From positions 66,100 through 130,099 of the forward strand of contig CAIJZX010000016.1 in assembly GCA_903825245.1 (NCBI GenBank): a DNA stretch of 64,000 nucleotides, in the 5' to 3' direction. Shown one piece after another: positions 6,218 through 64,000 of this stretch. Source of the stretch: Candidatus Kerfeldbacteria bacterium (GTDB taxonomy: Bacteria; Patescibacteriota; Patescibacteriia; SBBC01; CAIJZX01). A model generated the notes under the pieces. That model was not told the origin of the DNA. It did not search any database and saw only the letters and a program-made list of their open reading frames with translations. Positions within the stretch are counted from its first letter, which is position 1. Every line of letters begins with the position of its first letter. The translations under genes were made by a program, and so were the position numbers.

Positions 6218-6293
6218 CGACACCTTTAGCCAGGTATTTGATACTACCGGGTCTTGATTTAGCATATACGCCGTGGTACACTGGCCGACGTAT

Positions 6294-6367: not shown

Positions 6368-6377
6368 AAAAAATATT

Positions 6378-6455
6378 ATGAGTCGCATCGCCATCATTAT
6401 TATCGCCGCTATGATTATCATCATTGTGGTGTATTTGCTGACGAATCCAAAATAG
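6378..6455 (+). CDS. 25-aa hydrophobic, Ile-rich mini-ORF (MSRIAIIIIAAMIIIIVVYLLTNPK)
   Basis: ATG 10 nt after the tRNA-Gln. No obvious Shine-Dalgarno. A single predicted TM helix. Its 3' end overlaps copy 1 of the 33-bp repeat. Confidence 0.25.
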   Translation: MSRIAIIIIAAMIIIIVVYLLTNPK

Positions 6456-6475
6456 CATTCGATTGGGTGAGGAGG
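6443..6475 (+). repeat. 33-bp direct repeat, copy 1 (GAATCCAAAATAGCATTCGATTGGGTGAGGAGG)
   Basis: 32/33 identical to the copy at 8727-8759. The two copies bracket the beta-helix protein gene. Confidence 0.8.
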
Positions 6476-6521
6476 AGGCATGTGCCATCGACGGCATGGT
6501 AGTTCGATTTTTCGTTAATCG

Positions 6522-49509: not shown

Positions 49510-49521
49510 GTCGAACGATGA

Positions 49522-51498
49522 TTAGAAGTTAACTGAGATGGATCGATCTTGACTGAGCGAACCGGTAAACGAGAGTGCACCTTGACTGAATTTCGATTGA
49601 TTGTCAAGTCCGTCCGTTGATTTTGGTCGCGCCGATAATCCGGTCACCGACAGATTAATTGTGGGCGTTAACATCCCGGCTTCTTTTTGCCATGCTAACT
49701 TGTACGCGCTTTGTTTAAATTGTGCGGTTACGTTATCTGGCAATTTGTACACCAATTTCAAATCGGAAGTTGTTCCCGGCTCGATTGACTTGAAAGCCGA
49801 GAAGACCGTTTTTCCTAATTCCGTCGTCGTCGTCACCTGCCCAGCAGCGTTCGACTGTTGACGAATTTGCGCACCGGAACTACTAACGAGTGTCGAGCCG
49901 CTCGGAACGTAGACGCGAACAAACGTGTTATACCTCGTTATCAGATAACTTGTTCGCCAATCAAACTTGCCGGTGTTGTGGTAATGAATCGTCAAGGTCG
50001 CAGTTCCCGTTTTCGCGTCGACTTGATAATCGTACGTGCGTTGCATAACGCTATCAGTTTTTAAACTGGCTAAGTTCGCATCCGCGACCAAAATTGAATC
50101 AACGGCCGGTGTTTGGCTGATAGCTCCCCCCCAATTTTGCTGGACAATCAAACCCTGCAGTGCCGTATCGTTCATGTACATCAGGAATTGTTTTTCATTC
50201 AGCTGTTGGCTAAGTACCAGGAATACATCCTTCCATTGGGCAATTGGTAATTTCATTAATCGATCAACCAATTCCTTGGTCATATTGCCGATAATATCCT
50301 TGCGCTGAGCATCGGTTAACCCGGCGACTTTAAAATCCTTATCGACATACTGTTGTAAACGGTCGGTAAAGTTGTCGGCGGTAAATTGTATGCCACTAAC
50401 CGTGATCGGACCTACCAGTTTAAGCAGGGCACTAATCATCGTCGGGGTAATAGCAATCACGCCGTCAACATTTTTCTGTCCGCCTTCACGCTGGTAGAAG
50501 AATAGCGCCTGTGCCGCTGACGTCGGAAAATCAGGCGACCAGTTACTATCACGGAAATACCACACGTTTTGTTTTAGGTATTTCTGCAAGGCATCCGGCG
50601 GCTTGATGACTGATAAACTTTTGGCATTGTCGTCAAGATTGTAACTGTTATCGGTCTTCATGGATACGATTTCTCCCGACGCGACTTTCATGATGCCGTA
50701 GGTGCCAATGAATCCTCCACCCGGACGAATTTCCGTGTTATTTTCGAGTAAGAACAAATACGTCTTTTGCGTTGGATACCCGAGCACCGCTGGTAAAATG
50801 TGCGTGGCTGGAATTGCTTGGTCAAAGGCTTGAAGAATTGCCGGGAATTGCTGTTTGAACGGTACAATGACTTTTTTCAACGGACCGGCTAATCCCTTAC
50901 TCGGAACGTTGTCCAATTTTTTTCCGGCTTCGTGCATCGCGTCGCGCGCGGCTTGCAAATCCCCTTCTTGCGAAGCCATATTGCCAAGCAATATTCCTTT
51001 TTGCTCGGTGGAAATTGTGGCTAAGCTGATTTTCCCCTGACCGGCGAACGGTGCAAATAAATGCACCATGAAGTCAATTAACGGCGTGGCCGCATTAAGC
51101 GACTCTTTCCCGACGTCGACCAGCGCCACGCCGGCTTTGTACTGTGTGCCGATATATGGCCAGTATTGTAATCCCTTGGCTTGTTGCAAATGTTTACCGA
51201 TGACTGCGACATTATTCTGCAATGATTTTGTATCGGCTTTCGCTGCGTCAAAATTTTGTTCACTGACATGCGACGAAAGCAGTTTGGCTGTTACTTTCGC
51301 CTTCTGCGCCTCGTCGTACACAGGTTTCAGCTTCGGATAGTAATATCCGGCAATAATCAGGAACAAGCCTAATACGCCGCCAATGCCGATTGACGTCCAT
51401 TTCATCCACGGTCGCCAGCGACGACGCGAACTTTTCGGAGCTGAAGGATTCAGTCGGAGATTCGGTTTACGGAAGAAGCGTCGCCAAAAGGGAATCAT
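49522..51498 (-). CDS. DUF4012-like membrane-anchored extracytoplasmic protein
   Basis: Single N-terminal TM helix, with the YLFLLENNTEIRPGGGFIGTYG motif recalled for the DUF4012 family. Confidence 0.5.
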   Translation of the reverse strand: MIPFWRRFFRKPNLRLNPSAPKSSRRRWRPWMKWTSIGIGGVLGLFLIIAGYYYPKLKPVYDEAQKAKVTAKLLSSHVSEQNFDAAKADTKSLQNNVAVIGKHLQQAKGLQYWPYIGTQYKAGVALVDVGKESLNAATPLIDFMVHLFAPFAGQGKISLATISTEQKGILLGNMASQEGDLQAARDAMHEAGKKLDNVPSKGLAGPLKKVIVPFKQQFPAILQAFDQAIPATHILPAVLGYPTQKTYLFLLENNTEIRPGGGFIGTYGIMKVASGEIVSMKTDNSYNLDDNAKSLSVIKPPDALQKYLKQNVWYFRDSNWSPDFPTSAAQALFFYQREGGQKNVDGVIAITPTMISALLKLVGPITVSGIQFTADNFTDRLQQYVDKDFKVAGLTDAQRKDIIGNMTKELVDRLMKLPIAQWKDVFLVLSQQLNEKQFLMYMNDTALQGLIVQQNWGGAISQTPAVDSILVADANLASLKTDSVMQRTYDYQVDAKTGTATLTIHYHNTGKFDWRTSYLITRYNTFVRVYVPSGSTLVSSSGAQIRQQSNAAGQVTTTTELGKTVFSAFKSIEPGTTSDLKLVYKLPDNVTAQFKQSAYKLAWQKEAGMLTPTINLSVTGLSARPKSTDGLDNQSKFSQGALSFTGSLSQDRSISVNF

Positions 51499-52304
51499 AA
51501 GCTATGGGGTGGGTTAGGTTGACCGCGATACTTGCGGAAGTATTTTACCCAACTTTTGACATGAAGTCGAGCCGGATAGGAGAAGAGAACACCAAATGCG
51601 CCGACAGAGGCCGATGGACGTTGATGATAATGCACCATTTCCGCCGTCGGCACATATTCCACCGACCACTCTTTCAGCCAAAAGCGCCGACATACGTCAG
51701 TATCCTCGACAAAGAGGAAGAAGTGTTCATCAAATCCACCCACCTCGTCGAGCGCCGACCGGCGCATAAATAGCGCCGCACCGAGTGCCCACCCAACCGG
51801 CCGTTGATCGGCATGATTCCATTCTTTCATCAAAAAACGATTGATTGCTTTCCGCGGACCGGGTAGGTTACCAAACGGCGTGCGCCGCCACAAGGCCATA
51901 AAAAAGTTCGGGAAACGGTAGACCGACAGTTGTGTCGTGCCATCAGGATTAATGAGTTTCGGCACGGCAATTCCCGCTCGCGGATGTTCGTCCATGAATC
52001 GATGCAATGCCACCAGTGCTTCAGGAAAAACCGCCACATCGGAATTGAGGGTCATGACATATCTTCCCGTCGCGATAGCAAAGCCCTTATTCATACCGGC
52101 GCCAAAACCGACATTGCTCGGCGATACGACCAGCCGCACGTGCGGAAAGTGCTGTTGCACGAGTTCGACACTGCCGTCTTGTGAATCATTATCAACGACG
52201 ATTATTTCATACTCAAATGGTAACGAACATTCGCTAATGCCGCGCAGACACTGCTTGAGCAAGCCTTTCGTTTTATAATTGACGATGACAATCGAAAGTT
52301 CCAT
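51495..52304 (-). CDS. Family-2 glycosyltransferase
   Basis: LSIVIVNYKT...VDNDSQDGS GT-A N-terminus. Confidence 0.75.
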   Translation of the reverse strand: MELSIVIVNYKTKGLLKQCLRGISECSLPFEYEIIVVDNDSQDGSVELVQQHFPHVRLVVSPSNVGFGAGMNKGFAIATGRYVMTLNSDVAVFPEALVALHRFMDEHPRAGIAVPKLINPDGTTQLSVYRFPNFFMALWRRTPFGNLPGPRKAINRFLMKEWNHADQRPVGWALGAALFMRRSALDEVGGFDEHFFLFVEDTDVCRRFWLKEWSVEYVPTAEMVHYHQRPSASVGAFGVLFSYPARLHVKSWVKYFRKYRGQPNPPHSL

Positions 52305-52318
52305 AGTTGTGTCTTGTT

Positions 52319-53356
52319 CTAGCTCTGTTCGCCGATAAACCAGCGTCGGACCTCAAGCGCCGAACGTTTGGCTTGGTGATTGATAACCTTTGCTTTGCGA
52401 CGCATTTTTGGCCATAACCGGATCGCATCCAGTATAGCATTGATACTTGGCTGGCGGGTAAAGGTTAGAAAAACGAATTTCTTCACCTCATACACCTTCA
52501 TCCATAACATATCACGCCACAATGTTGACCATCGTTCGTTCTTCATCAGTACCAAATAATGATTTCGATAGGAGTAGTAACTATTCAACCGCGTTCGACT
52601 GCGATGATTCTTCGCTATCAGTCGATCGCTCGTCGCGGAAACGCCTTTGATGCCGCGATAATGCCGCGCCACCGCTCGCGGATCGTACCAGGCATTCCAA
52701 CCCATACGTTGCAATCGCCAGCTCAAATCAAGGTCGTCTTTGTAGGCGAAGATGTCATTATCAAACACTTCATCAAGATACGTCACGCTTTCGAGTGCCG
52801 ATCGGCGATACATAACGCAAGCGCCGCTGAATCCGAATACTTTTCCCGCTGTGTCATACTGGCCATGATCTGTTTCCCCGCTTCCCCGGTCGGTCGTGTG
52901 ACGATTGCGGCGGACGAGCAATCCGCAACTGTCTATTATATCGGATGGCACTACATCTTTCATATCGTCGATGGTATACGAAAAACGTAACGTCTTGCCA
53001 CCAAACGAACTTGCGGTTGCATCATGTTTCAGAAATTCTAAACCGCGCTGAATCCAATTGTCGCCCAGAATAACATCCGGGTTGAGCACCAAAACAAATT
53101 CACTTGAAGTCAATCGCAGCGCTTGATTGTGGCTCCGGCAGTAATGCCAGTTTCGCGTATTTCGCAGGAGGTGAAATTGCGGATAGTGTTCGGCAATCCA
53201 CGGCACCGTTCCGTCAATCGATGCATTATCGACAATCATCACCTGCATCTCCGGCGTCAATTGTTTCGCCACCGCATCAAGGCAAGCCGCAATGTGCGTC
53301 ATGCTGTTCCAGGTAACGATGTGGATGGAAAGAGTAAACTTAGACGCCATAGGCAA
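52319..53356 (-). CDS. Family-2 glycosyltransferase
   Basis: LSIHIVTWNS...VDNASIDGT GT-A N-terminus. Confidence 0.75.
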   Translation of the reverse strand: MPMASKFTLSIHIVTWNSMTHIAACLDAVAKQLTPEMQVMIVDNASIDGTVPWIAEHYPQFHLLRNTRNWHYCRSHNQALRLTSSEFVLVLNPDVILGDNWIQRGLEFLKHDATASSFGGKTLRFSYTIDDMKDVVPSDIIDSCGLLVRRNRHTTDRGSGETDHGQYDTAGKVFGFSGACVMYRRSALESVTYLDEVFDNDIFAYKDDLDLSWRLQRMGWNAWYDPRAVARHYRGIKGVSATSDRLIAKNHRSRTRLNSYYSYRNHYLVLMKNERWSTLWRDMLWMKVYEVKKFVFLTFTRQPSINAILDAIRLWPKMRRKAKVINHQAKRSALEVRRWFIGEQS

Positions 53357-54734
53357 AAATCGCGGTCAACATCAGCCAACCCAATCCAAGCGGATGATTG
53401 AGGTACGGCGTAGTCAAGTGAATGACTAGTAATGCAATACCGCCAATCATGAGCGGCAACGCCCAAGCTTTCGTTTTCATTTTTCGAAAGAGCGTGAACA
53501 GCCACCACACATACAGCACCATCCCGAGCAATCCGATCTTCAGCCACAGATCCAGATAACCGAGCTCGAAGGCAAATGTCGTGCGCCAGCCGTGAACAGT
53601 CGGATCGGTGCTGAAGTATGTAACGGTTTGGCCAAAGCCACTGCCGATAACCGGATGGCGGCCAATCGCTTTCAGTAACGGTTTGAATTGCTTCGTCCGA
53701 GCGGTCGCCGCATTTTCCGATCCGGAACCGTTGAATCGCGAACCGACCGCAGCGTCACTGCCGTGAAGAGAAAATGCCGGCCAGCTAATCGCCCAGACCA
53801 TCATCGCCCACGCAAATATTCCCAGCGGCACGACAATCCACCATTTTTTCAGTTCGCGCCATGAACGGCGACGTAAACTGATGACGATAAGCACGATTCC
53901 AGCCGCCGTTAAACCAAGCCAAAAACTTCTCGACAAACTGATGTACACCGCCAACGCCGAAAACGCCATCGGCACCAACCACCACCGCGGCGTACGCTGA
54001 CGTAGCCAAATGGCCAATGAACCGAGCACAACAAGCACGCCATAAATTTGGCTCTGCAAAAAAACCCGATAAATATTGTTATTGATGTACGTCACTTCAC
54101 CTAAACCACTGTTACGAATCCAAGAGTACCAATGATGAATGTTCGGCAATGTTCGGGCGAACAGCAACACGAATACCCAGCTCATAAGTCCAACAATTGT
54201 TGCTCCACCGAGCAAGACCGCGATGACCAGTTCTTTCCATCGTTCGTCTTGGCGAAGCAATACCCACCACGCCGGAAGCAATGCCAGAAACACAAACGCA
54301 TTCGCATCGCTGTAGATTGCACCGAGATGAATCCCGCGAACGAGCGCAACGACAATGGCAACAATTAACCAACCGATAAAAGCAAGAAAAGCATTCGAAA
54401 GAATACTTTTCCGTAATTCACTCCATTGCTTCAGCACCAAAGGAATCGCTGTAATCAGAACGATCGCAAATACTATCATCCGCAGTGAAATGTTCGTACT
54501 GCCAAGATGCAGTGACAATACATATCCTTTCCCGCCAGTCACTAGTTCACCGATCGACATCAATGCTAACCACGCCGGTCGTTTCCAAGCCACAACCGCA
54601 CTTGTCAAAATTGCCAGTATAGCAATCGATTGCGCCCAAACAAACCCATACGTACCAATCCACGACAAAATCAACAGCAACACTGCAACACCAATCACCA
54701 TACAATACTGTTTGAATGAAGGAAGTCGAATCAT
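53340..54734 (-). CDS. O-antigen ligase/polymerase-family polytopic membrane protein
   Basis: About 11 TM helices plus a large loop with Wzy_C-like periodicity. Overlaps both flanking GT genes. Confidence 0.55.
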   Translation of the reverse strand: MIRLPSFKQYCMVIGVAVLLLILSWIGTYGFVWAQSIAILAILTSAVVAWKRPAWLALMSIGELVTGGKGYVLSLHLGSTNISLRMIVFAIVLITAIPLVLKQWSELRKSILSNAFLAFIGWLIVAIVVALVRGIHLGAIYSDANAFVFLALLPAWWVLLRQDERWKELVIAVLLGGATIVGLMSWVFVLLFARTLPNIHHWYSWIRNSGLGEVTYINNNIYRVFLQSQIYGVLVVLGSLAIWLRQRTPRWWLVPMAFSALAVYISLSRSFWLGLTAAGIVLIVISLRRRSWRELKKWWIVVPLGIFAWAMMVWAISWPAFSLHGSDAAVGSRFNGSGSENAATARTKQFKPLLKAIGRHPVIGSGFGQTVTYFSTDPTVHGWRTTFAFELGYLDLWLKIGLLGMVLYVWWLFTLFRKMKTKAWALPLMIGGIALLVIHLTTPYLNHPLGLGWLMLTAIFAYGV

Positions 54735-55591
54735 CGCGGTTTAAACAAACTCTGTATGATAGTTAGTACATAACTGATTGGCATTAACACATACAACACC
54801 GCGACTTCCCATGGTTGCCAATATTTTTTTGCATACCGTAATAAGCTTTTCAGTAGCCAGACGTGTTTTGCTAGGCTGACGTGTTGAATAAAGCTTTTTC
54901 CACCGTGATGAATAATCTGGGCAGTCGGGAGATAGACAATATCCTTGCCTGATTGTTGAATTCGACTGCAGAGATCAACTTCTTCAAACCAAATCCAGTA
55001 GCCTTCATCAAACGTGTTACCGGCGAGCAGAACACCACGCGGTATAAACAATGCCGCGCCCATCAATTGCTCAACAATTTTCGGCTCCTTGTCGGTCATC
55101 GGCACATCCGCCATGTACCGTTTCAACGGCGGAATAATTTTGTAGAGCATCCGCAGTTTCAATAGCACAAAGAACTGATCAGCGAGGCGCGGAAATCTTC
55201 GCACCGACGGTTGATGCGTTCGATCGCTATTCAACAACTCCGGTCCGATACAACCCGCTTTCGGATGCGTGGACGCATATTGTACCAGCGCCGGAAACGG
55301 ATCGTTGATAAACTCGGTATCCGGATTGAGGAAAAAGACATACTTGCCTGACGTTCGTTCCCAACCTTGATTATTCGCGCGCGCAAAACCGGCATTGGTG
55401 GCGTTAGCAATGACCGTAACGTTTGGAAATTTCTGGCGTACCATCTCGACCGTCTCGTCGGAGGAATGGTTATCTACCACAACAACCTCGTGCGGCGTCC
55501 GTACGAACCGTTCAATGGACTGTAGGCAATCGATCAGGAGATCGCGGACATTCCAACTGACAATGACGATACTGACCTCGGGATCAGACAT
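54731..55591 (-). CDS. Family-2 glycosyltransferase
   Basis: VSIVIVSWNV...VDNHSSDET GT-A N-terminus. Confidence 0.75.
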   Translation of the reverse strand: MSDPEVSIVIVSWNVRDLLIDCLQSIERFVRTPHEVVVVDNHSSDETVEMVRQKFPNVTVIANATNAGFARANNQGWERTSGKYVFFLNPDTEFINDPFPALVQYASTHPKAGCIGPELLNSDRTHQPSVRRFPRLADQFFVLLKLRMLYKIIPPLKRYMADVPMTDKEPKIVEQLMGAALFIPRGVLLAGNTFDEGYWIWFEEVDLCSRIQQSGKDIVYLPTAQIIHHGGKSFIQHVSLAKHVWLLKSLLRYAKKYWQPWEVAVLYVLMPISYVLTIIQSLFKPR

Positions 55592-55633
55592 GCTGAAGCC
55601 ACTTTAGCACGCCATAAGCCTTTCGGCAAGTCA

Positions 55634-55736
55634 ACCCAGCACCACAATGGGGACGGCTATGGTCATCAAATTAGGAGATTTAAAAACAAAATACACATTT
55701 TTTGAAAAACACAAATTTTGCATTGTGGTGCTGGGT
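55634..55736. repeat. Perfect 16-bp inverted repeat (ACCCAGCACCACAATG / CATTGTGGTGCTGGGT) around a 71-bp AT-rich spacer
   Basis: Arms at 55634-55649 and 55721-55736 are exact reverse complements. The repeat sits at the left edge of the AT-rich island. Confidence 0.8.
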
Positions 55737-55802
55737 CAAGCTAGCACCACTATGGCTTAATTGAAATGACGTACTAACGATTCCCTTTTTGCTCGGTTAT
55801 GC

Positions 55803-57377
55803 TTATTCCAGCCGATCTTTAAAAAACTGCCTTAACTCAGGATCAACAATATATACATATGTTCCTTCAATTCCACGAGTCAAAAGAGTTTTATATATAT
55901 TGATTATATATCGCTCAAGTTCTTTTGGGTCATCTGTTCCACGCTTACCATTCATATCAAAATATTTTTCGACGTGTATTTCAAATTTTCGATATGTCTT
56001 GTTGTAACTAATCTCTGGGCCAATAATCACTCCGGCATAATTTAAATCGTAGCCCTGAACCGTATGAATACAACCCACTTCATTAATAGCGTTTTTAGAA
56101 TTAACCCAGTTTTGATTAACACTATTCCACTTTAATTGCACTCCATCAATTTCAATGTCATGCATACTTGGATCTTTTTTTGAAATCCAAGGCCAAGCAT
56201 ATCCGGAAATAACCCTGCATAACTCCATTTCTCTATCGCGATGCTTAATATCTGACACCATTTTCTCAATATTGTCGTAAATCTGAAAATCATATTTGGT
56301 AAACGTCTCGGGTTTAGCGTCAACAACGTCAAATATATTTTGAATAAAGCTTATGTACTTTTCACCTTCTTCCCCCGCTCCAACTCTCATTTGAGTATTC
56401 AGAGTATACTGCTTAGCTTTTAACCTAGGATAAATTTCGTGATTGATGTCGGATGGTCGAACATGTTGGCCTTTATCGTAAAACAGGATTTGTTGTTTTG
56501 AGGAGCGCAGAATCCAATCAAGTTCGTTGCCATTATTTCCTAACCCAAGTTTTTTATTAGTAATATCAAAACTGGCGTAATTGGTGATATTTTTTCTTTG
56601 ACGTAAACGATGTGCTTCGTCAATAAGCAATAAATCATATTTTTTGTTAACTACTTCGTTCGGCCCAATAACCATGTTCGATTTCAATCCAGTAACATTT
56701 TGGAATACTTTTTTTAGTGTTTGACGCAAAGACGTCATTGGCACTACTAATGCAATTTCAAGATTTTTTGTTTCTTGAATTTCCTTTAGCGATTTCATAA
56801 GAAAGGTCGCCAAAATAGTTTTTCCCGTGCCAGGGCCACCGTTGATGATAAAAGTCGATGATGTACCCATTCGGATTTCTTCGAGTAGTGAAGTAACAAT
56901 CTCTCTTTGATCGTCTGTAAGTGCTTTATACGGTGAATATTTAAATACGTCACTATTCTTTATTTGCACTAAATCTTTCTTTGCTAATGACATTTCTTGT
57001 AACTGAACCCATAGCCGTTCAAACTTAGCCTGGTACTTCTGGCGATCAAAATAATTATGGTTTAACAATCCCTGATTTCCATTCTGCAACGTAAAAAGTC
57101 CATCAGCAGCCATAAACTGTATAAGCGATGATTCTATATCAAGTGTTGCGGATTTATTGTATTCTTCATCGGTTATTATATGCATTCTGTCGAGCTTGCG
57201 ACGCTCGGGATTATCATAGTGTTGATTGCCTCGGTTGAACGCATTTACAGTTTCTCCGATGTAAATCTCTTTTTTATTTTCTAATATATAAACAACGGGC
57301 CAGTTGCGCCCGAAAGTATACGAACGAATTTTCTCGAATTGCTCCTTGCTGAAGGAAAATGTTTCTATCTGAGACAT
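55803..57377 (-). CDS. GIY-YIG nuclease domain fused to a DUF2075/SF1-helicase-like P-loop ATPase
   Basis: N-terminal WPVVYILENKKEIYIGETVNAFNRGNQH (GIY-YIG). Walker A INGGPGTGKT, Walker B LLLIDEAHRL, C-terminal helicase-like region with HTVQGYD. About 33% GC against a window background near 50%. Confidence 0.7.
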   Translation of the reverse strand: MSQIETFSFSKEQFEKIRSYTFGRNWPVVYILENKKEIYIGETVNAFNRGNQHYDNPERRKLDRMHIITDEEYNKSATLDIESSLIQFMAADGLFTLQNGNQGLLNHNYFDRQKYQAKFERLWVQLQEMSLAKKDLVQIKNSDVFKYSPYKALTDDQREIVTSLLEEIRMGTSSTFIINGGPGTGKTILATFLMKSLKEIQETKNLEIALVVPMTSLRQTLKKVFQNVTGLKSNMVIGPNEVVNKKYDLLLIDEAHRLRQRKNITNYASFDITNKKLGLGNNGNELDWILRSSKQQILFYDKGQHVRPSDINHEIYPRLKAKQYTLNTQMRVGAGEEGEKYISFIQNIFDVVDAKPETFTKYDFQIYDNIEKMVSDIKHRDREMELCRVISGYAWPWISKKDPSMHDIEIDGVQLKWNSVNQNWVNSKNAINEVGCIHTVQGYDLNYAGVIIGPEISYNKTYRKFEIHVEKYFDMNGKRGTDDPKELERYIINIYKTLLTRGIEGTYVYIVDPELRQFFKDRLE

Positions 57378-57382
57378 CAGGA

Positions 57383-57769
57383 TTACAGTTCGTTGTACTT
57401 TTTATCACTATCCTTCGCCTTCTCAATAGGATATTTCTTTGCGTTCAATTCCATTTTCTGTTTAAACGCCGATTTAATATCAATACCGAGGTCGTGGCTG
57501 AGGAGCAATACCCAATACAAAACATCACTTAGTTCCTCACCAAGATCTGTTTTATGTTCTTTTAGATATTTTTCTAAATGTTCGTTATTTTTCCACTGAA
57601 AATGTTCTAATACTTCGGTCGCCTCAAGTACTAAAGACAACGCCAAATCCTTCTCGTTATGAAACTGCTTCCAGTTCCGATCGTTTCGAAACTTGAGGAT
57701 AATATCGGTCAGTTCCTGAATATCAGTCATACTGCGTAAAGAACTCGTCGTTCTTTGCCCGTTTGGCAT
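57383..57769 (-). CDS. MazG-like all-alpha nucleoside triphosphate pyrophosphohydrolase
   Basis: EATEVLEHF and ELSDVLYWVLLLSHDLGIDI motifs of the MazG/HisE-like NTP-PPase fold. Ends 5 bp before the downstream ATPase gene on the same strand. AT-rich. Confidence 0.6.
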   Translation of the reverse strand: MPNGQRTTSSLRSMTDIQELTDIILKFRNDRNWKQFHNEKDLALSLVLEATEVLEHFQWKNNEHLEKYLKEHKTDLGEELSDVLYWVLLLSHDLGIDIKSAFKQKMELNAKKYPIEKAKDSDKKYNEL

Positions 57770-57912
57770 TGGTGAGATTGCTGTTAGCCATAAGGAAATG
57801 GTACGCCTTTTTCGCTAAGAAATCAATAAAAACTACTTATTGACAAGCCGATGCTTTTGGTGTATCATTCCTCTACTAAACGTAGGCCGGATATCTCGTA
57901 TGTCCGGCCGGT

Positions 57913-58542
57913 TTATTTGTGCTCAAATTTGAGTTCGTGTTCAAGACGAACGAAGTCTCGAAAATTTGATCCGGCGAACTGCTTAATCTCTCGTGCCGTA
58001 CGCGGCCCACGAGCGAGAACGATAACTTCTTTACCTTGCTGTTGAATGTGTTTCAAGACCGCTAAAAAATCGCCATCTCCGGAAAGCACAAGTACTCGAT
58101 CATAGTCGGGCAAATCGCGCATCATGGCGAAGGTCATGTCAACATCGCAATTCGCCTTTCGTTTTACCGAACCATCGTCTTGATGATAGGTCTTCACTGG
58201 TTTGAGCACGAGATGGTAACCAAACTGTTCAAGCAGTAAGTAAAACCGGACGCGCTGAAGGTGTTTGCCAGCAATCAGTAACTCAGCTTCATTCAAGTTT
58301 TTGCCTTGGCGCTTGATATTGTCGGCGAGATGACGTTCTAGGTCTTGTAACGGTACGGTCTCATAATGAAGATAGTCATTATGAAAGTTATTCGTTTCAA
58401 CGCCACCAAAGTAATAAACCCGCGTAACATCGTACTTCTTTCGTAAATATAGTAGGAGTTTTTTGTAATCGATTTTCCAGCCTAAACTTTTCTCTCCGCC
58501 ATAGAAGAGGTTTGAGGCATCAATATAGACGTAGGTTTTCAT
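57913..58542 (-). CDS. NYN-domain (LabA/DUF88-like, PIN-related) predicted ribonuclease
   Basis: YIDASNL...VLVLSGDGDF acidic motifs of the NYN fold. Confidence 0.6.
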   Translation of the reverse strand: MKTYVYIDASNLFYGGEKSLGWKIDYKKLLLYLRKKYDVTRVYYFGGVETNNFHNDYLHYETVPLQDLERHLADNIKRQGKNLNEAELLIAGKHLQRVRFYLLLEQFGYHLVLKPVKTYHQDDGSVKRKANCDVDMTFAMMRDLPDYDRVLVLSGDGDFLAVLKHIQQQGKEVIVLARGPRTAREIKQFAGSNFRDFVRLEHELKFEHK

Positions 58543-58653
58543 GTTTTTATGATACCCGAAGAAATACCGAATGTCAAATAGTTCCCTACGTTAACCAAAA
58601 TGCCTATATTGAGTACAGGGTATGTGAATAAATAACAAGGCGTATTTGAGAAT

Positions 58654-60438
58654 TCATACGTAATGCAAACCATGCTTCTCTCGGATCACCCGTTCCGCTT
58701 CCCGATACTTGGCAATATTTTTGTTGCCTTTCCCCTGCCCGATAAACGGTAAGCGATAGACGAATGATGGCACCCATGCGCTCATGCCGATCTTTTGATC
58801 ACGCTGAGTAACGGTGAAAAGCATTTCCGGAATCCACATTGCCTGCTTCTTGTGCTCAGCCATCGTCAGCCATAAATCCCAATCCTGAAAACGTTTCAAG
58901 GTTTCATCAAATCGCGGAAAGGCCGATCGTCGCATCAGGCTTGAGGTGTGAATATAATTCATTTTTTTCAAATCCGAAACAGAGTATTCATGTAGATGAA
59001 ATTTTTTCCAGCCGAACGTGAAATCGCTATATACCATGTCGATTTTTGGATGCGCATCGAGGGCACGAACCATATGTTCAATCGCTTTCGATTCAAGCAC
59101 AATGTCGGCATCGAGAAAAATAACATAGTCACCATGGCTGGCATCAAAACCGGTGTTTCGGGCTTGCGGCGCGCCGCCGTTTTCCTGACGAATGTATTTC
59201 ACCGAAGATGCAAAGGGTTTCAGTGCGGCCGCAAGATCATCAGTAGAACCGTCATCAACAACGATGATGTCAATATTTTTATACGTTTGTGATTGCACTG
59301 ATTGCAACGTGGCGGCAATCGTTGAAGCGGCTTGGTATGCCGGAATAATAATGGAAACCTTATGTTGTTGCTCAGAAATTATGAGCTGTTTCAACCGCGC
59401 GACGCGAACGGTATCGGTGAACTCTTTCAGAACGCGCTGTCTCCCCTGTTCGCCGATTCGATGCGCATCACTCGGCACATCAAATAACTGTGCAACTTTT
59501 TTTACAATAGCATCAGTATCGTTTGATTGGACGAGAAAACCTGTGACGCCGTCAGCAATGGCATCGCGAATACCGCCGGTATCACTGCCGATCACCGGCA
59601 AACCAACCGCTGAGGCTTCAATATACACTAATCCAAATCCTTCAATATCGCGACCGCCTGCTTCAATCGTCGGCGTCATGATAAAAACATCCGCATGCGA
59701 AAGCAATTTCCACTTTTCATCCTCATCAATAAAACCATGAAATGTCACAGCATCACCAATGCCAAGTTCCTGAGCTTTTTGCTCTAACGCTTCGCGTTCC
59801 GGTCCATCGCCGATAACATCGAGCGTACAATCGGGATACGCTTTTCTCAGTTGAGATACGACATCTAAAAGCGTGGTGATATTTTTTCGTTTCACTAATC
59901 GCGCGGCGGTGACGAGCTTGCGACCCGCGACTGCGGAACGCGATTCCAGCAAAACGCGATTAGCGCTGACATACGGATGCGCCTCAACAATACGCGCTTT
60001 CGGAACGCCATGATGATGGACGCGGTTAGCCATAAATGAGCTATTGACGGCAATCCACCGCGCGCGTCGTAACAGGTAATTCATGATCGGCCGCATGTAC
60101 CAGCGCCGCTCATCTTCAAGCAGATCGTTACCGTGGACAAATATGGCAAACGGTATACCGGCAATACCAGCCGCCAACACTGCACGGCTCCAATGGCCGA
60201 AAATAGCGAGCTCGAGCCCATCTGCTTTCGCGCTGTTGAACCAACTTACCAGCCACCACCAACTCGGTCGCGACGTGCCGGAAAATAACGACCGGCGGAT
60301 ATGCTGTTCGTCAGATGCAACATGCGGTGCGATTACCGTTACATCGTCGCCGAGACTTCGCGCAAATAGTTCAAGGGTCGATTGAATACCGCCGATATCC
60401 GGCGGATAAAATTCACTGAGCAAGGCAAACCGGGTCAT
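58654..60438 (-). CDS. Bifunctional GT4 (N-terminal) and GT2 (C-terminal) glycosyltransferase
   Basis: GT4 signature EASAVGLPVIGSDTGG, followed by the GT2 block VSIIIPAYQ...VVDDGSTDD. Confidence 0.7.
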   Translation of the reverse strand: MTRFALLSEFYPPDIGGIQSTLELFARSLGDDVTVIAPHVASDEQHIRRSLFSGTSRPSWWWLVSWFNSAKADGLELAIFGHWSRAVLAAGIAGIPFAIFVHGNDLLEDERRWYMRPIMNYLLRRARWIAVNSSFMANRVHHHGVPKARIVEAHPYVSANRVLLESRSAVAGRKLVTAARLVKRKNITTLLDVVSQLRKAYPDCTLDVIGDGPEREALEQKAQELGIGDAVTFHGFIDEDEKWKLLSHADVFIMTPTIEAGGRDIEGFGLVYIEASAVGLPVIGSDTGGIRDAIADGVTGFLVQSNDTDAIVKKVAQLFDVPSDAHRIGEQGRQRVLKEFTDTVRVARLKQLIISEQQHKVSIIIPAYQAASTIAATLQSVQSQTYKNIDIIVVDDGSTDDLAAALKPFASSVKYIRQENGGAPQARNTGFDASHGDYVIFLDADIVLESKAIEHMVRALDAHPKIDMVYSDFTFGWKKFHLHEYSVSDLKKMNYIHTSSLMRRSAFPRFDETLKRFQDWDLWLTMAEHKKQAMWIPEMLFTVTQRDQKIGMSAWVPSFVYRLPFIGQGKGNKNIAKYREAERVIREKHGLHYV

Positions 60439-61910
60439 GATCGGCGTATGCGCGCAGCTAAATGCTCAACATCCTGACGGGAAATAATCTGGAATACAAA
60501 CAGTAGCACCAGGTACACCGCGCCAAGAGTTGCTGCAACGAAGAAAACCCCGGACATGTTTTTTGTGTAGGCCAGTAGTCCTAAACCAATCGCACCGAGA
60601 ATTAATCCAGCCGCGATTGTTTTTCCGAAGGTGAAGAGTAGTTCGCGAATCGGAAATTGAATTGTTTTTCGCGCATAATAGAAACCGAGGGAAAATAACA
60701 GCAACGATGTACAAACGGAAATAATCGCCACCGAATAGTACGAATATTGCCGAATAAAAATTAGGTTTAATCCGATATTGACCAACACCGTGATCGCAAT
60801 ATTCCACGTATTCCGCGTTTGTCGATTGGCGGCATTCAATAAATAGCCGATCGGATAATGTAAGAATAAGAACGGCAAGCCGATTGATAAAATACGCAAC
60901 GGCCAGACAGCGTCAATCCATACTTTTTTGTAAAGCAACAGGACGAGCGGATGCGCCAGAAGAATAATCACCACCATGATCGGGACGAAGACAATAATCA
61001 AATATCGCATAGCATCGAGGAAAAGACGCTGCAGTTTTTTGCGATCATTGATAAACGCAGCGCTCATGGCCGGATAGATAGCACCGACGAGCGCGGCCGG
61101 AACAATTTGGAAAGCAATCGCCATTTTGCTTGCCGTGCCGTAGAGACCGACGTCGCGATGCGTTTTAAAGATTTGCAATAGGAATGTGTCGCTGTTCGCG
61201 TATAGCGCCGTGAAGAGCGCCGCGACGGCGAAAGGAAAAGCAATTTTCAGCAATCGCTTCATGACTGTCGTATCCCATTTCGGGCGCCAGCTCATTCCCT
61301 GGCGCCACAGATGGAACGAAACATATAAGAAGTTAGCGGTACTACCAGCAACGAGCGCGATGATAACCACAATCGGCGGGGCGCCGAGATGAAGCGCTAA
61401 TAATCCTACCAGCATCACCACCACGCGGTGAAGCACTGTTCCGACCGATTCGAACTCTAGACGCTGTAATCCGCGGAAAAAACCGTACCCGGTGGCCGTA
61501 ATGGCGTCGATGGCCATGCCAATTGCCGCCCATACGAGATATTGGGATGCCGGATGCGATAAACCGGCCTTGGAAAAAATATAAACCGTCACCGCTAACG
61601 CACCAGAAACGACCACCGCCATCAGTATCTTAAACGTAATAATGATATTGTACTCGTTTTTTCCTTCCGTTGGATCGCGAGCCACCTGGCGAATGAAGGC
61701 CGGGAGTAATCCTAAGTCGACGAAAATGGCGAAGATATTGATAAACGACAACGCGCCCAAATATTCGCCGATCGCCGACGGACCAATCAGTACCGCCACG
61801 ACCGGAATATACAACGCCGACAACACCTTTTGCCCGAGTAGGGCTAAAGTTAAGTAGGTCGTGTTTCTTGCGACCCGTCCGCCGTTGACCGTCGTCGGGG
61901 CTGCCGTCAT
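60435..61910 (-). CDS. Wzx-like oligosaccharide flippase (MOP superfamily)
   Basis: About 12-14 TM helices. N-terminal TYLTLALLGQKVLSALYIPVVA matches the polysaccharide biosynthesis protein pattern. Confidence 0.65.
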   Translation of the reverse strand: MTAAPTTVNGGRVARNTTYLTLALLGQKVLSALYIPVVAVLIGPSAIGEYLGALSFINIFAIFVDLGLLPAFIRQVARDPTEGKNEYNIIITFKILMAVVVSGALAVTVYIFSKAGLSHPASQYLVWAAIGMAIDAITATGYGFFRGLQRLEFESVGTVLHRVVVMLVGLLALHLGAPPIVVIIALVAGSTANFLYVSFHLWRQGMSWRPKWDTTVMKRLLKIAFPFAVAALFTALYANSDTFLLQIFKTHRDVGLYGTASKMAIAFQIVPAALVGAIYPAMSAAFINDRKKLQRLFLDAMRYLIIVFVPIMVVIILLAHPLVLLLYKKVWIDAVWPLRILSIGLPFLFLHYPIGYLLNAANRQTRNTWNIAITVLVNIGLNLIFIRQYSYYSVAIISVCTSLLLFSLGFYYARKTIQFPIRELLFTFGKTIAAGLILGAIGLGLLAYTKNMSGVFFVAATLGAVYLVLLFVFQIISRQDVEHLAARIRRS

Positions 61911-61920
61911 AGATTTTCGA

Positions 61921-62451
61921 TTAACGTTTTTGCCACTGTGGCGCGCGTCGGGCGCGCTTGAGGCCGTATTTTTTGCGTTCTTTCGCCCGCGGATCGCGGC
62001 GCATGAAACCGGCGCGCTTCAAAACGAGGCGTAAATCCGGATCACCTTTGACGAGGGCGCGCGCAATACCGAGACGAACCGCTTCTGCTTGGCCGGCGAC
62101 GCCGCCACCATTCACTTTAGCAGTCATATTACCGACCGTCGTGTTGTTCGTCGCGACTAATGGTTGCATGACGGCGAATTGAAGTTCGAGCGTCGGGAAG
62201 TACTGCGTCATCGGCCGTCCGTTGACGGTAAAAGCCGGGGCATCGTTGGCGTGCCAACGAACGCGAGCGACCGCTTCTTTTCGGCGTCCAACAGCGAAGA
62301 TGTATGTCGTCTTAGCGTGCGGGGTTGTCGGCTTGCTGATGACATGGTGCGCCACTTTTTCGGCCACAGGTTTCGCAACTGTCTTGCGGACAGTCGGTTT
62401 GCGGGTCGTTACTTTCTTGGCCGTAGGTTTTTTCTCAGCGGTTGTAGGCAT
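61921..62451 (-). CDS. rpsI: Ribosomal protein S9 with a Lys/Thr-rich N-terminal extension
   Basis: C-terminal GGGVAGQAEAVRLGIARAL...RRAPQWQKR. About 45 extra N-terminal residues. Confidence 0.85.
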   Translation of the reverse strand: MPTTAEKKPTAKKVTTRKPTVRKTVAKPVAEKVAHHVISKPTTPHAKTTYIFAVGRRKEAVARVRWHANDAPAFTVNGRPMTQYFPTLELQFAVMQPLVATNNTTVGNMTAKVNGGGVAGQAEAVRLGIARALVKGDPDLRLVLKRAGFMRRDPRAKERKKYGLKRARRAPQWQKR

Positions 62452-62453
62452 GA

Positions 62454-62801
62454 CTATTGTACTTCGAGGATGAGTCGTTTCAAAATGCGATCGCGGAGCT
62501 TATTGTCCGGTAACATCCGCTTGACGGCCAGTTTCAATAACCGTTCCGGGTGTTTCTCACGGACTTCAAACAATTTCTTCTTTTTTAAGCCGCCCGGATA
62601 GCCGGAGAAATTGTAATACATTTTCGTGCGTTCTTTGGTGCCACTAACAACAACTTTATCGGCATGATGAACAACAACTGTTATATCAGCTTCTCGATCA
62701 GGTCGATAGGCGGTCGTTTTTTTCCCGCGAAGCGTAATTGCGATGTCCGACGCTAATCGGCCGAGGATCTTATTGGTAGCGTCAAATTCGATGGTCGTCA
62801 T
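62454..62801 (-). CDS. rplM: Ribosomal protein L13
   Basis: IDATNKILGRLAS... conserved N-terminus. Confidence 0.85.
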   Translation of the reverse strand: MTTIEFDATNKILGRLASDIAITLRGKKTTAYRPDREADITVVVHHADKVVVSGTKERTKMYYNFSGYPGGLKKKKLFEVREKHPERLLKLAVKRMLPDNKLRDRILKRLILEVQ

Positions 62802-62803
62802 GG

Positions 62804-63160
62804 CTATTCGGTAATGAATTCAAGCAACACTTTTTCCGCGCCATCGCCGGATCGAAATCCGACTTTGATACTGCGCAGGTAACCGCTCTGGCGTTTCGCG
62901 TAGCGCGGTCCAAGCGTCATGATGAGCTTATCGGCGGCTTTGGCGTTGTTCAACGCGGCCATCACCTGTCGGCGAGCGTGTAACGTTTTCGGTTTCGCCG
63001 CGGTCACTAAGCGCTCCACCATCGACTTCGTCGCTCGCGCTTTGGCCGCCGTGGTGGTAATGCGTTCATGCGTAATCAAGCTAATCGCCAAATTGCGCAT
63101 TAACGGTACCCGCTGTTTAGCGGTTCGGTCGAGCGTTAGTTTATTCTTACGGTGTCGCAT
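62804..63160 (-). CDS. rplQ: Ribosomal protein L17
   Basis: MRHRKNKLTLDRTAKQR...HERITTT signature. Confidence 0.85.
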   Translation of the reverse strand: MRHRKNKLTLDRTAKQRVPLMRNLAISLITHERITTTAAKARATKSMVERLVTAAKPKTLHARRQVMAALNNAKAADKLIMTLGPRYAKRQSGYLRSIKVGFRSGDGAEKVLLEFITE

Positions 63161-63169
63161 GGGAAAATA

Positions 63170-63985
63170 TTAGGCTTCGTCTTCGTCAGATTTCTTCTTG
63201 GCAGTCTTTTTCTTCTTCGGTTCGTCATCAGCTGATTCGTCTGTTGTTTCAACCGGTTCTTCCACCGTTTCGACTACCGCTTCCGTGGTGACCATGCCAG
63301 CGGCATTGTCGAGGACGAAACTAAAGTGATCGACGAGGATTTTGGCCGCCTGTTGCAATGCTTCTTGCGGCGTCACGGTACCATCGGTCGTAATATCGAG
63401 TAACAATTTATCGTAGTTGGTCATTTGGCCGACGCGGACGTTCTCGGTCGTGAAATTCACGTTCTTCATCGGCGTGTAAATCGCATCGAGAGAAATCGTA
63501 CCAAGCGGCAGGCGTTCTTTTTCGCGATTTTCTACCGGGACATAGCCGCGGCCTTTGCCGACGGTCAATTCCACTTCGAACTTGGCTGCTTTATCGGTTA
63601 AGGTGGCGATGTGTTGCTTCGGGTTGAAGACTTCAACATCAGCATTGCCTTTAATATCGGCGGCCGTCACGTCGCCGGCTCCGGTCTTGGAGATGGTTAC
63701 CGTTGTCGGTTCGTCGGTATGAATCTTGAGGCGGACGAGTTTCAGGTTCAAGAGAATATCAACCACGTCTTCCTTCACGAACGGTAGGGTCGAAAATTCA
63801 TGCGTCACGCCTTCGAATTTGACCGCGGTAATCGCGCCGCCAGCCAAGGACGATAGTAAGACGCGTCGCAAGGCGTTGCCGACGGTCATACCATAACCTG
63901 GGTAAAGCGGTTCGACGGTGAACGTGGCGCGGTGATTGCGCTGTTCGTCCTGCGTCAGGGATGTTGGGAGTGGTAACGTTTCCAT
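63170..63985 (-). CDS. rpoA: RNA polymerase alpha subunit (N-terminal domain with charged tail; no canonical alpha-CTD)
   Basis: Alpha-NTD dimerisation motifs (EPLYPGYGMTVGNALRRVLLSSL). Ends in an acidic/Lys tail after about 240 aa. Confidence 0.75.
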   Translation of the reverse strand: METLPLPTSLTQDEQRNHRATFTVEPLYPGYGMTVGNALRRVLLSSLAGGAITAVKFEGVTHEFSTLPFVKEDVVDILLNLKLVRLKIHTDEPTTVTISKTGAGDVTAADIKGNADVEVFNPKQHIATLTDKAAKFEVELTVGKGRGYVPVENREKERLPLGTISLDAIYTPMKNVNFTTENVRVGQMTNYDKLLLDITTDGTVTPQEALQQAAKILVDHFSFVLDNAAGMVTTEAVVETVEEPVETTDESADDEPKKKKTAKKKSDEDEA

Positions 63986-64000
63986 AGTTCTGACCCTTTA

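Follow-up and report, generated by a model that had tools for sequence, protein, structure and literature searches.

Introduction

The closest described relatives of the system considered here are Nhi of Staphylococcus epidermidis (SERP2475; Bari et al.), a proven anti-phage nuclease-helicase, and the Nhi-like proteins (Millman et al. 2022), in which an N-terminal nuclease is followed by a C-terminal superfamily 1B (SF1B) helicase with the DUF2075/PF09848 domain. The same order of domains is encoded in a 64,000-nt stretch of contig CAIJZX010000016.1 (assembly GCA_903825245.1), which was analysed at its full length and is called the window below. An insert in the window carries, on the minus strand, a gene for a GIY-YIG nuclease fused to an SF1B helicase, directly preceded by a gene for a MazG-like predicted pyrophosphatase and, further upstream, by a gene for a NYN-domain predicted RNase (Table 1). 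We describe the first two genes as a conserved pair, of which the window copy is one ordinary member of an uncharacterised family.

A first-pass annotation, made by a model from the sequence, had likened the nuclease-helicase to the Nhi-like architecture, and the analogy of a nuclease fused to a helicase stands. The PADLOC profiles for Nhi and AbiO match the window protein at E 4e-16 and 4e-15, but only in the helicase core, and the Nhi match is partial (residues 143-373, profile positions 174-366 of 470, E 3.6e-16), covering the first RecA-like half. The nuclease of Nhi is of the PD-(D/E)xK type, for which the window nuclease-helicase has no Pfam match, whereas that of the window protein is GIY-YIG. 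Nhi is a single gene, whereas the window family is paired with a MazG-like gene in nearly every locus compared, and the descriptions of Nhi consulted make no mention of an S24 autoprotease, which half of the window family carries. Therefore, the pair lies outside Nhi on the grounds of nuclease type, obligate partner, and partial profile match, although it resembles Nhi otherwise.

The SauUSI-type type IV enzymes offer a second comparison, as they likewise combine a nuclease and helicase protein with a neighbouring gene for a small NTP pyrophosphohydrolase; MutT-type pyrophosphohydrolases adjoin homologues of the SauUSI nuclease-helicase (PMC7641849). However, SauUSI uses a phospholipase D (PLD) nuclease and a Nudix (MutT-like) partner, whereas the window pair uses GIY-YIG and all-alpha MazG domains, which are unrelated enzymes, and SauUSI has a defined modified-cytosine specificity, whereas the window protein has no detectable reader domain. 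In a Priestia locus, an MrcB_N modified-cytosine reader protein and MutT precede the MazG-DUF2075 pair. DUF2075 NTPases have also been reported to adjoin modification-dependent endonucleases (PMC6765204).

The best structural match of the helicase core is human SLFN11 (Schlafen group 3), which also falls in PF09848 and has an identity of about 12-13%. According to published accounts quoted in PMC13056530, the SLFN11 helicase binds single-stranded DNA (ssDNA) on replication stress, which is conceptually parallel to the putative RecA-ssDNA-sensing S24 module in a long form of the window family. The N-terminal effector of Schlafen proteins is an AlbA_2-type tRNA endoribonuclease, whereas the window protein has a GIY-YIG domain of DNase type, and the published work on bacterial Schlafen defence concerns the RNase domain and not the helicase. 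The MazG-like protein is all-alpha, like DCTPP1 (RS21-C6) and the archaeal pyrophosphatase 4qgp; DCTPP1 is a housekeeping enzyme with no nuclease-helicase partner, whereas the window protein is a stand-alone, 115-aa predicted dNTPase bound in an operon to a nuclease-helicase. PD-T4-3 and other defence nucleases of the GIY-YIG type (PADLOC candidate PDC-S14) differ in being small, either single-domain or fused to a reader, and in having neither a helicase nor a MazG partner.

In the searchable (open-access) literature, GIY-YIG-DUF2075 fusions are mentioned once, in passing, and neither the DUF2075-MazG pair nor DCTPP1 in phage defence is described. The first-pass annotation had not recognised the gene combination as a described system, and this agrees with the absence of a match in that literature and in PADLOC v2.0.0. 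What we rate as new is a putative nuclease-helicase defence system with an obligate nucleotide-pool partner and an optional LexA-like switch.

Results

A Conserved Two-Gene Unit

The gene content around the nuclease-helicase was compared in 83 loci from different species, in which genes were called with a simple open reading frame (ORF) picker and neighbours were grouped by single-linkage clustering. It was found that a MazG-like gene adjoins the helicase gene in 82 of the 83 loci, the exception being cut by a contig end that leaves 48 nt of upstream sequence, and that in 80 of them it immediately precedes the helicase gene on the same strand, separated by a short gap. No further gene next to the pair is conserved. 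The first-pass annotation had treated all three genes of the insert as one module and had proposed a search for their co-occurrence elsewhere: two of the three are nearly universal companions, whereas a NYN gene is an occasional one, present in 4 of the 83 loci. Therefore, the conserved unit consists of two genes, MazG-like and then nuclease-helicase, and their pairing is obligate.

The pairing extends to distant relatives. In all six homologues from viral or phage contigs (40-45% identical), the two genes are adjacent. Megaplasmids of the Bacillus cereus group carry a gene annotated "nucleotide pyrophosphohydrolase" directly before one annotated "DUF2075 domain-containing protein", with a helicase 33-34% identical to that of the window, and the two genes are neighbours in every compared plasmid record that was found in both match lists, including a Ligilactobacillus plasmid. 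The pair is also present in Priestia and in the archaeon Halalkalicoccus, whose helicase has an identity of only 28-29%.

More than 7,400 homologues of the nuclease-helicase were found at E<=1e-10, and a scan of species genomes placed relatives in at least 576 matching stretches. The best 80 of these stretches are mostly from Patescibacteria, with Gammaproteobacteria, Bacteroidota, Clostridia, Bdellovibrionales, and others also represented. As these 80 loci were chosen for their closeness to a query from the Candidate Phyla Radiation (CPR), no taxonomic enrichment can be claimed from them.

The pair is AT-richer than its surroundings, with a mean GC content of 0.341 compared to 0.401 for the flanks in the 76 loci with enough flanking sequence. 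The GC content of the pair was more than 5 points below that of the flanks in 42 of these 76 loci and higher in none, and it remained at 0.35-0.40 even in hosts with a GC content of about 0.60. This persistently low GC relative to flanks and hosts points to ongoing horizontal spread of the pair.

The closest relative of the window pair (locus L001) is 90% identical at the amino acid level and 81% at the nucleotide level, over window positions 55842-57723 only, which is the pair without the NYN gene. It stands in another context, beside a second DUF2075 gene and a Fic gene; the second DUF2075 protein, of 658 aa and with a different N-terminus, precedes the pair (184-4132 of L001). In plasmid p1 of Bacillus sp. 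PGP15 (L124, 2036-6662), a GIY-YIG-KAP NTPase gene and a MazG fragment lie between the MazG and DUF2075 genes. An HNH (HNH_2) endonuclease gene was seen two to three genes upstream of MazG in both of the Bacillus plasmids inspected.

The Nuclease-Helicase

The three minus-strand ORFs of the insert and the 5-nt gap between the MazG-like and helicase genes were as the first-pass annotation had given them. Its domain assignments were largely borne out by profile hidden Markov models, in that DUF2075, MazG-like, and NYN all pass the Pfam thresholds, whereas GIY-YIG falls short of its threshold and is recovered by fold.

The helicase core scored 223.3 bits against PF09848 (cutoff 24), covering positions 2-354 of the 354 in the profile. 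It contains a Walker A motif GPGTGKT (residues 181-187) and a DEAH motif (253-256), and residues P182, G183, T184, G185, K186, T187, D253, E254, and H256 are invariant in the family. An AlphaFold2 model of the full-length protein (predicted local distance difference test score 82.7) was compared with the Protein Data Bank (PDB) using Foldseek, which gave the human SLFN11 helicase as the top match (7zep, E 9e-11), followed by Dna2, RecD, Upf1, and RecD2. The helicase is assigned to the SF1B type because these are its best structural matches.

The N-terminal domain required a fold search, because sequence and profile searches were sub-significant. PF01541 (GIY-YIG) scored 16.7 bits against a cutoff of 22.6 and matched residues 28-64 only; the Bacillus homologue, at 21.8 bits, is likewise below the threshold. 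A profile of residues 1-135 ranked T4 EndoII, I-TevI, and UvrC first among PDB entries, with E values of only 0.08-0.3, and a PDB sequence search with the full helicase protein gave no match. The modelled domain has the alpha/beta fold of GIY-YIG nucleases, with UvrC and Slx1 among its best structural matches. Residues Y30 (in VVY), Y39-I-G41, R49, H53, E82, and N99 are invariant, including in the Bacillus (about 30% identical) and fecal-virome (about 40% identical) homologues. The predicted fold together with the invariant catalytic residues confirms the N-terminal domain as a GIY-YIG nuclease. The GIY-YIG residues, Walker A, and DEAH motif are all intact, as would be expected of a catalytically competent nuclease-helicase.

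The family is very tight: the 120 best homologues are 58-90% identical over essentially the full length, and the mean column identity is 67%. No modified-base reader domain (SRA, EVE/PUA, MrcB_N, DUF3427, and similar) was found by Pfam in the window proteins.

A Long Form with an S24 Domain

The window protein is a short form that ends with the helicase at residue 524 and has no C-terminal S24 domain. In 42 of the 83 loci (e.g., L003, L009, and L014), the gene encodes a form of about 672 aa, in which an extension of about 150 aa contains a C-terminal Peptidase_S24 domain. In these long forms, the motif GDSM is present in 41 of 42, and the Cys-Gly site and the lysine of TIK are at least 90% conserved. 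A Ser-Lys dyad and a Cys-Gly site are hallmarks of the LexA/UmuD self-cleavage that is stimulated by RecA-ssDNA. The conservation of these residues suggests that the long form may undergo RecA-ssDNA-triggered cleavage, which would activate the nuclease-helicase. No description of a nuclease-helicase with a LexA/UmuD-type S24 domain was found in the open-access literature searched.

The MazG-like Partner

The MazG-like protein scored 65.3 bits against PF12643 (cutoff 27). Its PDB sequence matches are the archaeal pyrophosphatase 4qgp (1.8e-18) and mouse and human DCTPP1 (9e-16), with which it has the metal-binding motif EELSDVL in common. The metal-binding residues E36, E39, E42, E66, and D69 (EXXE...EXXD) show at least 95% conservation across 76 partner proteins. 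House-cleaning of the dNTP pool is the established role of DCTPP1/RS21-C6 enzymes.

The longest ORF (57383-57769) encodes 128 aa and ends 5 nt before the helicase start. Homologues mostly align from residues 12-19 of this ORF, so the true start is probably M14 (57730), although a relative in locus L140 aligns over all 128 residues. The 143-bp gap to the NYN gene reported in the first-pass annotation holds for the longest ORF; with a start at M14, it becomes about 182 nt.

The protein has 53% identity with its counterpart WP_080546736.1 on the Bacillus thuringiensis plasmid pIS56-233, which is paired there with the helicase WP_000947885.1. MazG-like proteins that are 37% identical or less, as on Polaromonas and Streptomyces plasmids, have no DUF2075 neighbour, so that the linkage marks a sub-clade and is no property of MazG-like genes in general.

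Gene Neighbourhood and Predicted Function

The 148 proteins encoded within two genes of the pair were compared with 148 proteins encoded at least seven genes away. The near set was topped by Fic (6), followed by additional DUF2075, NERD, NYN, GIY-YIG, SocA/Panacea, PemK/MazF, and MrcB_N-NucS type IV-like nucleases (3 each), and also contained Zeta toxin, DpnI, and YgjP. The distant set consisted of housekeeping proteins, such as ABC transporters, SMC, ClpB, IF3, sigma-70, topoisomerase, and GatB. On the Priestia plasmid, a restriction endonuclease, MutT, an MrcB_N protein, the MazG and DUF2075 pair, and a type I restriction-modification (R-M) system follow in a row; this divergent locus is the only one in which the MrcB_N protein is co-operonic with the pair.

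Taken together, we consider it probable, with some reserve, that the insert is a mobile MazG-like/nuclease-helicase operon that serves as a nucleic-acid-targeting defence with a dNTP-sanitising or dNTP-depleting partner, joined by an independent NYN unit. In such a system, the helicase would load on and translocate along DNA that is foreign or replicates aberrantly, and this DNA would be cut by the GIY-YIG domain, as in Nhi-like nuclease-helicases. The pyrophosphatase partner would hydrolyse dCTP-type nucleotides, either removing modified dCTPs or depleting dCTP as a co-effector. Removal of modified dCTPs could starve phages that have modified bases, and could also keep salvaged modified nucleotides out of the host DNA, so that self-cleavage would be avoided. 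In the long form, the LexA/UmuD-type Ser-Lys autoprotease with its Cys-Gly site may couple activity to RecA-ssDNA filaments, whereas the short form of the window would act without this switch. The defence function, the substrates, a physical interaction between the MazG-like protein and the helicase, and the RecA-dependent cleavage are accordingly presented as predictions.

Several points weigh against defence. A mean column identity of 67% is unusually high for a defence gene and fits a housekeeping or repair function at least as well. Because the window protein lacks a recognisable modified-base reader domain, dependence on DNA modification is speculative. PADLOC v2.0.0 has no model for the pair, and the matches to its Nhi and AbiO models span the P-loop half only. 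The neighbours also include some stress or repair genes (MsrA/B, TspO, NUDIX, and methyladenine glycosylase). The apparent CPR bias of the family may stem from the ranking of loci by their similarity to a query of CPR origin, and partner genes that are small or evolve fast could have escaped the simple ORF caller and the single-linkage clustering. The prediction of defence is derived from gene content and sequence comparison across an uncharacterised family.

Some of these points would be accommodated if the pair were a genome-maintenance module, in which DCTPP1-like pool cleaning accompanies a GIY-YIG-helicase that processes damaged or stalled replication intermediates, and in which the long form responds in an SOS-like manner through RecA-stimulated S24 self-cleavage. 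The kinship of the partner with house-cleaning DCTPP1/RS21-C6 dNTPases, the presence of the repair nucleases UvrC and Slx1 among the best GIY-YIG structural matches and of Dna2 and RecD among the best helicase matches, the LexA/UmuD-type module in 42 of the 83 loci, and the very high conservation are all in keeping with such a role, as are occasional neighbours such as MutT/NUDIX, methyladenine glycosylase, photolyase-related genes, and MsrA/B. However, the distribution of the pair is patchy, with absence from four syntenic relatives of the host; its horizontal transfer is clear and its composition persistently foreign; it is carried on megaplasmids and a few viral contigs; and its nearest neighbours are mainly toxin-antitoxin (TA), Fic, and restriction genes and not repair operons. 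We regard a genome-maintenance role as unlikely.

A broader version of the defence interpretation is possible, and we put it forward tentatively. The pair would be a new and very widespread prokaryotic immune system, in which the helicase, with or without the autoprotease, senses ssDNA, RecA filaments, or modified DNA that arise as a phage replicates and destroys DNA, while the dNTPase reshapes the pool of dCTP or modified dCTP. It would be a major defence of the CRISPR-poor CPR bacteria and a prokaryotic counterpart of SLFN11 and DCTPP1, two guardians of the human genome, combined in one unit.

Insertion into a Conserved Glycan Operon

The first-pass annotation had described the block as an AT-rich island of different composition in an otherwise contiguous surface-polysaccharide cluster, and its foreign origin was confirmed by comparison with relatives, identified through protein homologues of the GT4-GT2 glycosyltransferase and their gene context. 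Four syntenic relatives (L120-L123) have an empty site, with the GT4/GT2 gene followed directly by the GT2 gene across a spacer of 40-42 nt in two of them (L120 and L123) and 322 nt in the other two, and the block has no syntenic counterpart among them. The gene order S13-S11-S4-RpoA-L17-L13-S9-flippase-GT4/GT2-GT2(261-286 aa)-Wzy-GT2-GT2-DUF4012-MreB is kept whole in all four.

Junction alignments showed that window positions ~55631-58638 (about 3.0 kb) are an insert between the GT4-GT2 gene and a 286-aa GT2 gene, and not 55592-58653 as had been annotated. On the right, the ancestral 3' end of the GT4-GT2 gene (CAAATACGCC; CAAAYACGCC in the alignment of relatives) breaks off at ~58639, and on the left, the native spacer picks up again at ~55630. 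The remaining spacer (55592-55630) aligns with the 40-42-nt spacers of L120 and L123 (CTTGTCGGG...TTATGGCGTGGTAAT[GA]T) and retains the promoter-like element of the GT2 gene, TTGNCG-17-TAA(A/T)GT across relatives, which is intact after the insertion. The boundaries are accurate to a few nt, a precision set by relatives that are about 55% identical at the protein level. Therefore, the insert is horizontally acquired foreign DNA in an intergenic spacer of a conserved envelope-glycan operon.

The composition of the insert is in accordance with this. In 400-nt windows, the GC content is 0.34-0.39 over 55600-57800 compared to about 0.48-0.54 in both flanks. In 1.5-kb windows over the 64 kb, the mean is 0.484 (sd 0.027) and the minimum is 0.359, at 55751, about 4.6 sd low; all windows more than 2 sd low fall within 55001-57501. 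The three 2-kb windows with the most deviant tetranucleotide composition also sit at the island (z 3.6-4.0). The island is thus the sole compositional outlier of the 64 kb, as the windowed GC and tetranucleotide analyses proposed in the first-pass annotation bear out, and the GC content of 33-36% that it gave for 55803-57769 against about 50% in the flanks is essentially right, if slightly low for the two genes (0.359 and 0.368). As shown in Table 1, the difference reaches synonymous sites, as measured by the GC content of third codon positions (GC3). For the island, the contrast is 0.36 against 0.48 in GC and 0.33 against ~0.53 in GC3, and the glycosyltransferase genes on either side have a GC content of 0.48-0.49 and a GC3 of 0.49-0.57.

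The helicase is 64-68% identical to copies in metagenome-assembled genomes (MAGs) of Shapirobacteria, Falkowbacteria, and Gammaproteobacteria, whereas the GT4-GT2 protein of the host is only about 55% identical to its nearest orthologues. The named ones among these orthologues are from Patescibacteria and Kerfeldbacteria MAGs, and the host is a Patescibacteria (CPR) bacterium. A scan of metagenome contigs with the GT4-GT2 protein returned distant GT2-domain matches only and no usable empty site, and an exact-sequence look-up of the window helicase gave no match.

The means of insertion was sought in the flanking sequence and in the other loci. No convincing terminal inverted or direct repeats were found around the whole island, and no integrase or transposase recurs beside the pair in the 83 loci. 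A phage or prophage origin was rejected, as 5 of 2.9 million viral contigs match and no phage genes flank the island; homologues were found in 4 of 50,697 phage records, at 24-39% identity. A cassette in an intergenic spacer with no recombinase nearby is also what might be seen if the pair were a selfish addiction cassette of TA type, with the nuclease-helicase as toxin and the MazG-like protein as its neutraliser or regulator, or a homing-type mobile gene, persisting by post-segregational killing or nuclease-driven spread. The order of a small gene and then a large gene with a 5-nt gap is compatible with type II TA geometry, free-standing homing endonucleases such as I-TevI have GIY-YIG as their catalytic domain, the pair is often plasmid-borne among other TA genes, and in L140 a MazG-like gene persists without a helicase, as if an antitoxin had outlived its toxin. 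However, the at least 95% conservation of the catalytic metal ligands of the MazG-like protein suggests that this protein acts as an enzyme and does not simply bind, typical toxins are far smaller and less conserved than the helicase, and neither target-site specificity nor a repeated insertion site was seen, as the contexts all differ. We consider such a selfish cassette improbable, and a defence operon remains our preferred interpretation of the pair.

The glycan operon (~49500-64000) comprises a flippase, the GT4-GT2 fusion, three GT2 proteins, a Wzy-like polymerase, and DUF4012, and lies between the S13-S11-S4-RpoA-L17-L13-S9 ribosomal cluster and mreB. This surface-polysaccharide locus, linked to core genes, is unusually stable in this CPR lineage, its order being kept at about 55% identity.

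The left end of the island is where independent metagenome assemblies of the same population all break off. Contigs L084 and L087 stop at the identical base, 55925, within the 3' region of the helicase gene, whereas L085 and L086 end at 55674 and 55645, inside the inverted-repeat region, and about 250 nt (55675-55924) are unassembled in those samples. Strain heterogeneity, cross-organism repeats in the conserved 3' end of the helicase gene, or a palindrome-induced break could account for these ends.

The NYN Cassette

The NYN protein scored 81.4 bits against PF01936 (cutoff 24.2), and it matches the PADLOC NYN model (8e-16) and PDB entry 2qip (3e-10). It belongs to a family of about 2,800 homologues across CPR lineages, of which the 120 best are 64-86% identical.

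The gene lies in a self-contained cassette with a promoter, a near-leaderless ORF, a terminator hairpin, and a conserved antisense promoter-like element. The cassette is 75% identical at the nucleotide level to positions 5966-6662 of L136, where it stands beside an MmeI-type R-M gene, and 70% identical to positions 6022-6705 of L140, and the homology ends at the ends of the cassette. The near-consensus promoter is kept upstream of NYN in L136, and its position relative to the NYN start implies a predicted leaderless or near-leaderless mRNA. The hairpin, which had been noted at the right side in the first-pass annotation and is present, is kept in L136 and has a compensatory C-G to G-C change in L140.

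A NYN profile gave four matches among the 1,435 ORFs (1.28 Mb) of the 83 loci, and all four are directly beside the pair on the same strand: two just upstream of MazG and two that follow the helicase gene after 19 nt and 135 nt. By a rough calculation that takes the two adjacent positions to hold about 12% of the ORFs, the chance of all four falling there is about 2e-4. NYN as a chance neighbour was rejected because all four adjoin the pair. Locus L140 (GCA_040960375.1) contains an intact MazG-like gene without a helicase (4429-4812), and a NYN gene (6001-6627; 73% identical to that of the window) followed by a MazG fragment (6831-6899; residues 13-35; 61% identical) and then by methyltransferase and Fic genes, and looks like a decayed NYN-MazG-helicase arrangement.

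These placements might be taken to indicate that NYN, the MazG-like protein, and the nuclease-helicase are one obligate three-gene system with the NYN RNase as a second effector, all the more so as contigs of the same population hold the three genes together (look-ups with the flanking glycosyltransferase and NYN proteins; short contigs only). However, the pair occurs without NYN in 79 of the 83 loci and in L001, its 90%-identical relative; the window NYN gene has its own promoter and terminator and a GC content of 0.435 compared to 0.36; and the same cassette stands beside an MmeI R-M gene elsewhere. An obligate role was rejected on the count of 4 in 83 loci, and the three-gene system is largely refuted and in our judgement highly improbable. 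NYN is best described as a facultative companion, separate from the core pair.

The NYN promoter region (58542-58579, minus strand; TTTGACATTCGGT.TT.CTTCGG.TA..AT, with a TTCGG direct repeat in the spacer) recurs with 87% identity at 7106-7143 of L140, where it precedes a gene for an N6/N4 DNA methyltransferase. The recurrence suggests that mobile genes of defence type in CPR genomes may have a portable promoter or operator in common. Only 6-9 nt separate the ATG from the end of the promoter in both the NYN gene and the native GT2 gene with its promoter-like element, which suggests that the host organism may use leaderless or near-leaderless mRNAs.

A promoter-like element on the plus strand points into the hairpin, and in three diverged copies its -35 TTGACA is invariant while its -10 is TATCAT, TATACT, or TACACT. 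The region 57838-57920 (plus strand; ~6620-6700 in L136 and ~6630-6710 in L140) conserves the hairpin, an invariant TACGTTTAGTA, and this antisense promoter. This arrangement predicts a convergent transcript of about 45 nt (57875-57918) that overlaps the NYN 3' end in antisense and stops at the hairpin and T-tract; such a transcript may regulate the NYN RNase in the manner of an antisense RNA or an antitoxin.

The Left End of the Insert

The perfect 16-bp inverted repeat that the first-pass annotation had placed at the left edge is present (55634-55649 and 55721-55736, the arms being 71 nt apart), and a third, partial copy of the arm follows at 55739-55754. The repeat begins 3 nt inside the left end of the insert, and a transposon-like terminal repeat was rejected on account of this internal position. 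It is part of a longer minus-strand hairpin (dG -63.8 kcal/mol, z -2.65), placed between the helicase stop and the native GT2 promoter, and is plausibly a terminator or insulator at the end of the operon. No other copies were found in the window or in 140 fetched loci, except in the same-population fragment L085, and Rfam at permissive E-values gave no match over 54500-59500.

Table 1. Positions, strand, and base composition of features in and around the insert (positions of the window).
Feature	Positions	Strand	GC	GC3	Evidence or remark
Native intergenic spacer	55592..55630	-			Holds conserved promoter-like element of the GT2 gene, TTGCCG-17-TAAAGT
Inverted-repeat region, left end of insert	55634..55754	.			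Two perfect arms and a third partial copy
GIY-YIG nuclease fused to SF1B helicase (DUF2075/Schlafen-group-3 type), 524 aa	55803..57377	-	0.359	0.331	PF09848 E 7e-66
SF1B helicase core, residues ~174-512	55842..56858	-			Pfam PF09848 stretch is residues 174-512
GIY-YIG nuclease domain, residues ~25-100	57078..57305	-			
MazG-like all-alpha predicted dNTP pyrophosphatase, DCTPP1/RS21-C6 type, 115 aa from M14	57383..57730	-	0.368	0.431	PF12643 E 6e-18
NYN cassette, self-contained	57838..58579	-			Promoter, near-leaderless ORF, terminator hairpin, conserved antisense promoter-like element
Promoter-like TTGACA-17-TATCAT pointing into hairpin	57840..57868	+			11/12 consensus positions
G+C-rich hairpin downstream of NYN	57885..57909	.			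Terminator scan; 10 pairs, 6 G-C; T-tract after it on + strand
NYN/LabA-like predicted RNase gene, 209 aa	57913..58542	-	0.435	0.457	PF01936 E 1e-22; composition intermediate
Near-consensus NYN promoter TTGACA-17-TATCAT	58549..58577	-			11/12 consensus positions; ends 6 nt before NYN ATG
Flanking glycan genes			0.48-0.51	0.49-0.57	

Discussion

For annotation, the results mean that pairs of "nucleotide pyrophosphohydrolase" and "DUF2075 domain-containing protein" genes are one functional unit; annotated copies of the pair are present on B. thuringiensis and B. cereus plasmids. The pair may also offer a bacterial system in which DCTPP1-like enzymes and the Schlafen-type helicase domain, both of which are of medical interest in humans, are tractable.

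If the pair functions in repair or nucleotide sanitation, it would be a mobile DNA-maintenance cassette, which would also be unusual. If it functions in defence, a widespread module would be added to the known systems, numbering more than 7,400 close homologues, matched in at least 576 species genomes, and present also on megaplasmids of the Bacillus cereus group, on lactobacillus plasmids, and in a haloarchaeon. In this module, a nuclease-helicase would be hard-wired to a nucleotide-pool enzyme and, in half of the members, to a LexA/UmuD-type switch. To our knowledge, CPR bacteria (Patescibacteria) have small genomes and few recognised defence systems, and a defence function of the pair would help to explain how they protect themselves.

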